Assembly (NCBI RefSeq): GCF_045037415.1
Contig: NZ_CP173438.1
DNA from: Escherichia coli
Lineage (GTDB): Bacteria > Pseudomonadota > Gammaproteobacteria > Enterobacterales > Enterobacteriaceae
Length of the DNA: 64,000 nucleotides
Strand: one strand, 5' to 3'
Position 1 is the stretch's first letter, and each line of letters begins with the position of its first letter. A program made the translations under genes and the position numbers. The notes under the pieces are model-generated. The model had not been told where the DNA came from. It did no database searches and was given only the letters and a program-made list of their open reading frames with translations. This document shows positions 35,856-36,413 of this stretch, piece after piece.

Positions 35856-36413
35856 ATGACCCTACGCAAGATTCTGGCACTCACCTGCCTGCTGTTGCCG
35901 ATGATGGCTTCCGCACATCAGTTCGAAACCGGTCAGCGAGTGCCGCCGATTGGCATCACCGATCGTGGCGAGTTGGTGCTTGATAAAGATCAGTTTAGCT
36001 ACAAAACCTGGAACAGCGCGCAGTTAGTGGGAAAAGTGCGAGTACTGCAACATATTGCTGGTCGCACCTCTGCAAAAGAGAAAAACGCGACGCTGATTGA
36101 AGCGATTAAATCAGCGAAGTTACCGCACGATCGTTACCAGACCACCACCATTGTTAACACCGACGACGCAATTCCGGGTTCCGGCATGTTTGTGCGCAGC
36201 AGTCTGGAGAGTAATAAAAAGCTTTATCCCTGGTCGCAGTTTATTGTTGATAGCAATGGCGTCGCACGCGGTGCCTGGCAGCTGGATGAAAAAAGTTCCG
36301 CTGTAGTGGTGCTGGATAAAGACGGTCGCGTGCAATGGGCCAAAGACGGGGCGCTTACTCAGGAAGAGGTGCAGCAAGTGATGGACCTGCTGCATAAATT
36401 AATTAATAAATAG
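35856..36413 (+). CDS. ytfJ: Periplasmic protein YtfJ
   Basis: ORF track 185 aa; signal peptide. Confidence 0.88.

Follow-up and report, generated by a model that had tools for sequence, protein, structure and literature searches.

Convergent, tail-to-tail overlapping genes are familiar in Escherichia coli: a count in K-12 gave 75 such pairs (PMC4161906). Also, 165 convergent excludons were reported in E. coli MG1655, mostly with terminators that are embedded in the neighboring gene (PMC12288877), and head-on polymerase collisions were described for convergent pairs (bioRxiv 10.1101/2022.10.23.513370). As for the locus that we consider here, Higashi et al. 2016 (PLoS Genet, S10 Fig; PMC4720273) reported that ytfI is an H-NS-bound insertion that is present in K-12 and absent from strains SE11 and SE15. 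So, the presence/absence polymorphism of ytfI has already been published and is essentially already known.

We examined the place where ytfJ and cysQ meet in a stretch of 64,000 nucleotides from an E. coli chromosome (NZ_CP173438.1), which we will call the window. The layout in the window is the same as in SE11 and SE15, which lack ytfI. We think it quite probable that this compact locus is ancestral and that nothing was deleted from it, that the K-12-type insertion is derived, and that a hairpin embedded in ytfJ defines or protects the 3' end of the cysQ mRNA. What the data show is how the locus is built, which of its states is derived, how common each state is in E. coli, and what is conserved; what the hairpin does and how the transcripts terminate, we infer.

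The shared ends of ytfJ and cysQ

We read the overlap from a listing of open reading frames and from the raw sequence. A sequence-only reading of the window had claimed that ytfJ and cysQ converge with an 11-nt overlap, and both the coordinates and the sequence bear this out (Table 1). In the window, ytfJ ends with ...CTG CTG CAT AAA TTA ATT AAT AAA TAG, and cysQ, on the other strand, ends with ...GTG TCT ATT TAT TAA. Thus, TTAATAAATAG gives ...N-K-stop for ytfJ when read forward and ...S-I-Y-stop for cysQ when read in reverse. Because the 3' ends are fixed by the stop codons, the overlap does not depend on which start codons are chosen. YtfJ matches Pfam family YtfJ_HI0045 (E = 1.5e-77) and CysQ matches Inositol_P (E = 8.6e-52), so these are two genuine protein-coding genes on opposite strands, and the bases they have in common include both stop codons. 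RefSeq/PGAP annotates the identical 11-nt overlap on four independent chromosomes of E. coli, and ytfJ is likewise annotated in identical genomes.

Table 1. Features at the ytfJ/cysQ junction. Positions are in the window unless they are preceded by a locus number from our survey.
Feature	Position	Strand	Description
ytfJ CDS	35856-36413	+	periplasmic protein of the YtfJ_HI0045 family (185 aa); ends with TAG at 36411-36413
cysQ CDS	37143-36403	-	246 aa, 3'(2'),5'-bisphosphate nucleotidase; stop TAA is + strand TTA at 36403-36405
Common 3' ends of ytfJ and cysQ	36403-36413	.	11 nt, TTAATAAATAG
Conserved stem-loop	36370-36394	-	Within ytfJ codons 172-180 (V-Q-Q...L-L-H); putative terminator or stabilizing hairpin for the cysQ 3' end
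Weak Escherichia-specific hairpin	36419-36435	-	CTGAATCCTGGGTTCAG; in the last codons of cysQ (L-N-P-G-F-R), followed by the AT-rich overlap; terminator-like in a scan
Empty site	36399-36402	.	4 window bases in place of the 1,225-bp ytfI insertion of K-12 (BLAST break points, junction sequences)
ytfI-type insert	L005		
Escherichia albertii NBRC 107761 insert	L007:3792-4949		1.5 kb, AT-rich, 33% GC; 385-aa pentapeptide-repeat protein (PF00805, E = 7.6e-12)
Citrobacter youngae ATCC 29220 insert	L044; genes 3676-4572, 4579-5631		2.1 kb; membrane protein whose tail is rich in Cys, Gly, and Ser, plus a radical-SAM/SPASM enzyme
Insert in two Kluyvera species	L058:3556-4455, L061:3544-4431		0.9 kb, 55-56% GC; homolog of S11 D-alanyl-D-alanine carboxypeptidase
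K. intermedia spacer			71 bp between ytfJ and cysQ

To survey the family, we scanned for YtfJ in one genome per species, which gave 80 loci from Enterobacteriaceae. In 74 of these 80 species representatives, cysQ converges on ytfJ and the two genes overlap. The length of the overlap is 11 nt in 41 species, with the motif T[CT]A[AG]TAAATAG; the other overlaps are of 7 nt (27 species) or 4 nt (6 species). The genera with an overlap include Salmonella, Citrobacter, Klebsiella, Raoultella, Enterobacter, Kosakonia, and Kluyvera, and the overlap is also found in Escherichia whittamii and in three other lineages of Escherichia. This conservation implies that the overlap is more than a chance event or an accident of annotation.

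The arrangement in K-12 is different. The gene order in MG1655 is cysQ (b4214), ytfI (b4215), ytfJ (b4216), and the stop codons of cysQ and ytfJ are separated by 1,212 nt. The sequence-only reading had correctly placed ytfI between the two genes in K-12; K-12 does not share the overlap, nor is its ytfI located elsewhere. By BLAST, the window matches K-12 in two collinear blocks (98.2% and 98.4% identity) with a break at 36398/36403. The same reading had estimated that about 1 kb of K-12 DNA would be absent from this strain, and the actual figures are 1,225 bp in K-12 and 4 bp in the window. The flanks are the same in both: paeA, ytfK, and ytfJ on one side and cysQ and cpdB on the other. Searches with the YtfI protein (tblastn) and the insert DNA (blastn) found no match anywhere in the 64-kb window. 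The G+C content of the ytfI segment of K-12 is 35%, versus 50% for its flanks.

A stem-loop within the last codons of ytfJ

Given where the stop codons are, neither mRNA can end short of the other gene; its 3' end has to lie within that gene or past it. Also, there is no intergenic spacer in the compact form, so the 3'-end signals should lie within coding sequence. It had been suggested, from the sequence of the window, that there is no room for terminators. The part about intergenic space stands, but the last codons of ytfJ contain a conserved stem-loop, UGCAGCAG-N9-CUGCUGCA, which is almost invariant. Its two arms are the codons for V172-Q173-Q174 and L178-L179-H180 of ytfJ. In the sense of cysQ, it reads UGCAGCAGGU-CCAUC-ACUUGCUGCA, which is a GC-rich stem of 8-10 bp that starts 8 nt past the cysQ stop codon. 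The 60-nt 3' flank of cysQ that holds the stem-loop folds with -16.5 kcal/mol (z = -3.0), and when we ran RNAalifold on the 74 aligned overlapping loci, the stem-loop was the sole consensus structure kept. A search of Rfam found nothing at the ytfJ/cysQ junction. Rfam's ES239 sRNA (RF02756) has a full-length match upstream of cysQ, in the divergent intergenic region between cysQ and cpdB (37210-37332, minus strand; 157 bits versus a gathering score of 62, E = 4.8e-32).

The codons of the stem vary little. Across the five stem codons, the mean codon entropy is 0.24 bit, versus 1.05 for random columns with the same amino acids (P = 3e-5). At one stem pair, G-C was replaced by A-U in a compensatory fashion in three related Escherichia sequences, which probably reflects a single event. 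The single-sided changes are all to G-U in the sense of cysQ, and so to A-C in the sense of ytfJ. Six of the ten stem pairs never vary; the covariation is thin and would be weak on its own. Across 74-80 species, comparably low synonymous variation is seen at codons 44-52 of ytfJ (approximately 35985-36011) and at codons 72-82 and 9-16 of cysQ (approximately 36898-36930 and 37096-37119).

Just 8 nt past its stop codon, the transcript of cysQ would meet the GC-rich stem-loop that is formed by the codons for Q173-Q174 and L178-L179 of ytfJ, and this structure could define or protect the 3' end of the mRNA. As in an intrinsic terminator, the stem is stable and GC-rich, the loop is short, and the stop codon is shortly upstream. 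Unlike an intrinsic terminator, it has no U-rich tract: the stem is followed by CACCUCUUCCUG, and a simple terminator scan does not call the stem-loop. The next ~120 nt, in the sense of cysQ, are C-rich and G-poor (C 0.32-0.38, G 0.17-0.22), which is more like a Rho-dependent end that is trimmed back to a protective hairpin. The stem-loop may be a non-canonical terminator or, more likely given that the U-tract is absent, a barrier to exonucleases after Rho-dependent termination. So, we favor a Rho-dependent or non-canonical end for cysQ, with a stabilizing hairpin, over a classical intrinsic terminator. The embedded stem-loop most likely forms or protects the 3' end of the cysQ mRNA.

We considered several other candidates for 3'-end signals. 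First, the stem-loop itself might be a bidirectional terminator for the convergent pair. However, it is entirely contained in the coding sequence of ytfJ, whose stop codon comes 17 nt further downstream, so it can serve only cysQ. Second, the hairpin at 36419-36435 is within translated codons of cysQ, and a transcript that terminated there would end at the stop codon. Its synonymous sites are unconstrained and other genera have a different sequence, so we rejected it as a conserved signal; it is probably not functional. Third, a + strand site at 36930-36945 is no more than chance would give (the scan found 4 sites, versus 2.0 +/- 1.4 expected). Past the ytfJ stop codon, in the sense of ytfJ, the sequence folds no better than shuffled sequences (z = -0.56), and we did not find a conserved terminator for ytfJ. 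The ytfJ transcript probably continues into cysQ, in antisense, until it is stopped by Rho or by a head-on collision between polymerases. Our search of the literature found nothing relevant on the 3' ends of cysQ or ytfJ, and no 3'-end data for strains without ytfI or for Salmonella.

Alternatively, the stem-loop might be a by-product of coding for a conserved V-Q-Q...L-L-H peptide with preferred codons. CAG and CTG are reverse complements of each other and are the preferred codons for glutamine and leucine, so a QQ...LL peptide tends to give a palindrome. The transcripts of both genes would then be stopped elsewhere, by Rho or by colliding polymerases, and the hairpin would not be needed. The missing U-tract fits with this, as does the equally low synonymous entropy in other windows of both genes, and the six invariant pairs say nothing about pairing. 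On the other hand, the other leucine and valine codons of the same genes vary freely (median 1.43 and 1.48 bit, versus 0.10-0.34 bit for the stem codons), and the codons for the loop, between the two arms, differ even in the amino acids that they encode. Also, non-coding copies of the stem-loop next to cysQ in Kluyvera and K. intermedia, which we describe below, keep the stem and lengthen it. We consider it less likely than not that the stem-loop is just a by-product of coding.

Insertions between the two genes

In the six species representatives that lack the overlap, which belong to at least five separate lineages, unrelated DNA is found at the same point between ytfJ and cysQ (Table 1). A separation of 71-2,120 bp is tolerated in these six and in the 30% of E. 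coli that have ytfI. The simplest reading is that the junction is a permissive site; only insertions between both stop codons spare both genes.

In Citrobacter youngae ATCC 29220, 42 bp from the 3' end of ytfJ are directly duplicated, with one copy on each side of the insert (L044:3507-3548 and 5638-5679; 95% identity, E = 2e-16). The duplication includes the hairpin, and its non-coding copy is 9 nt past the cysQ stop codon. A second strain of C. youngae (L035) has the plain 11-nt overlap, and the duplication may simply be recent. In Kluyvera and K. intermedia, hairpins of the form GCAGCA...TGCTGC lie 13-14 nt past cysQ, with the same spacing as in their overlapping relatives. In these non-coding copies, the outer pairs have changed in a compensatory way and the stems have lengthened to 10-13 bp. 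So, after independent insertions in C. youngae, Kluyvera, and K. intermedia, a copy of the stem-loop is found beside cysQ at the same distance of 9-14 nt. In E. coli with ytfI and in E. albertii, that place is taken by a different strong hairpin, which in E. albertii has an 11-bp stem. Every variant has a hairpin of 10-14 bp just past the cysQ stop codon. In Kluyvera, the cysQ-adjacent hairpin overlaps the annotated start of the S11 peptidase.

We tentatively propose, from these comparisons, that the stem-loop is a functional element of the cysQ 3' end across the Enterobacteriaceae, that a copy or a replacement is kept whenever foreign DNA lands at the junction, and that the junction is a recurrent landing site for cargo of one or two genes. 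If so, this would be a clean natural case in which the synonymous sites of one gene are constrained by the transcript end of its neighbor.

Another reason to maintain the overlap could be regulation. If ytfJ and cysQ form a convergent excludon, then sigma-E-dependent induction of ytfJ would lower the expression of cysQ, or the reverse, via transcriptional interference or cleavage of the duplex by RNase III, and the insertion of ytfI would have uncoupled the two genes in K-12. The two mRNAs must overlap when both genes are on, because the coding sequences do; the arrangement is conserved across the family; ytfJ has a promoter that is recognized by sigma-E (PMC4447067); and the excludons of MG1655 provide a precedent. 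However, the length of the overlap drifts among 11, 7, and 4 nt, and the separations described above are tolerated, which argues against strong selection for coupling. Also, there is no known functional link between YtfJ and CysQ. Regulatory coupling is conceivable, but we doubt that it is why the overlap is kept.

The history of ytfI and comparison to described systems

Among about 5,420 complete genomes of E. coli, ytfJ and cysQ are contiguous in 3,800 and ytfI is present in 1,623 (about 30%), and the two sets are essentially complementary. There is also a third, rare allele: in E. coli ETEC1738 (L082:2871-3950), a deletion mediated by IS1 has left IS1 in place of ytfI and the 3' third of ytfJ. 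The ytfJ of this strain is annotated as a pseudogene, and 164 bp of the region upstream of ytfI remain beside cysQ.

YtfI has no Pfam domain. In a search of 5.8 billion proteins, its homologs (down to 69% identity) were found only in Escherichia and Shigella, so by this measure ytfI is an orphan gene of these two genera. The only match to YtfI from PADLOC was to Cas6b, at 17 bits (E = 8e-4) over 40 residues, which we treated as noise. An AlphaFold2 model of YtfI, built from 8 sequences, was too poor for fold comparison (pLDDT 52.7, pTM 0.38).

The overlap is present across the family and in the majority of E. coli, while the homologs of YtfI are restricted, so the overlap is ancestral and ytfI is a lineage-restricted gain. 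As judged from these distributions, the absence of ytfI from the window is not a loss: the K-12 state is derived, and the compact state is both ancestral and the majority state in E. coli. We suggest that the compact layout was inherited from the common ancestor of the Enterobacteriaceae and that a 1.2-kb segment that encodes YtfI, which is AT-rich and bound by H-NS, was inserted exactly at the common gene ends in a minority haplotype of E. coli, to which K-12 and O157:H7 belong.

At the right junction of the insertion, genomes with ytfI retain the full overlap motif (TTAGTAAATAG) and the exact C-terminus of CysQ. At the left, their ytfJ has a new end, CAA AAG TTG CTC AAA TAA, so that the C-terminus of YtfJ is ...QKLLK-stop in K-12 versus ...HKLINK-stop in the window. 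K-12 carries a hairpin of its own past the end of cysQ (GATGGCAGAA/TTCTGCCATC) and another in the stretch that separates ytfI from ytfJ (TTCCCCTATC/GATAGGGGAA). The insertion of ytfI supplied ytfJ with a new C-terminus and stop codon and both neighbors with new hairpins.

The insertion is old, as judged from the considerable divergence among the ytfI alleles of E. coli (94-100% DNA identity, with protein clusters down to 69%). The left flank is AAGTTGCTCAA in the haplotype with ytfI, as in other Escherichia, and AAATTAATTAA in all of the E. coli without ytfI that we examined; this difference implies that the two haplotypes have had long separate histories. At 36396-36404, all of the examined E. 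coli without ytfI share four AT-enriching substitutions: they have AAA TTA ATT, whereas AAG TTG CTC is found in other Escherichia and, in the left flank, in the strains with ytfI. These substitutions change a leucine of YtfJ to isoleucine and make the overlap region 100% A+T over 20 nt.

The divergence of the alleles and the outgroup-like left flank, which the strains without ytfI lack, might suggest instead that ytfI is ancestral in E. coli and was deleted in the lineage of this strain, and that the overlap arose secondarily when the gene ends were fused, but this is very improbable: the same overlap is found in 74 of 80 species, including four other lineages of Escherichia; the excision would have had to restore the 11-nt register and both C-termini exactly; and the insert is AT-rich, bound by H-NS, and confined to Escherichia and Shigella.

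We also considered whether a transposon or an integrase might have carried ytfI. In K-12, ytfI is the sole gene of the insert, which encodes no transposase or recombinase. Repeats at its ends, whether inverted or direct, were not found in K-12, nor was a clean duplication of the target; the left end of the insert resembles the target only imperfectly (8/11). As a recombinase, terminal inverted repeats, and a target-site duplication were all lacking, we rejected this possibility. The ends of the divergent ytfI-type insert of L005 form a perfect inverted repeat of 12 nt (ATTAATTCCATA at 3557-3568 and TATGGAATTAAT at 4779-4790), whose right arm spans the cysQ stop codon. K-12 does not have this repeat, which may be due to chance (E = 0.005 in a small search).

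For strains like this one, the expectation from K-12 needs to be corrected: ytfI is a lineage-specific acquisition that is silenced by H-NS, and the state in which it is "missing" is the normal one. Annotation pipelines and predictors of transcript ends should look for the 3' signal of cysQ within ytfJ. Although the finding matters little by itself, the locus is a simple test case for how a convergent neighbor can constrain synonymous sites, and for how insertions between overlapping genes can be accommodated by duplicating the shared end. Two small and provisional additions are new: a putative hairpin for cysQ that is embedded in ytfJ, and a junction at which foreign DNA has been inserted repeatedly.

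Convergent overlaps of coding sequences are unremarkable as such, and the overlap of ytfJ and cysQ is real yet ordinary. It resembles the convergent overlapping pairs of K-12 in that a short overlap in the region of the stop codons joins genes on opposite strands. This pair is not in the K-12 set, owing to ytfI, and unlike the generic K-12 pairs, it is documented here across a family, with three classes of overlap length. Convergent genes with excludons, or with overlapping or bidirectional terminators (ExcludonFinder, PMC12288877; Wang et al., bioRxiv 10.1101/2022.10.23.513370), are similar in having a 3'-end signal inside the convergent neighbor and a stem-loop at the boundary, while the putative signal described here is upstream of the ytfJ stop codon and is not bidirectional.
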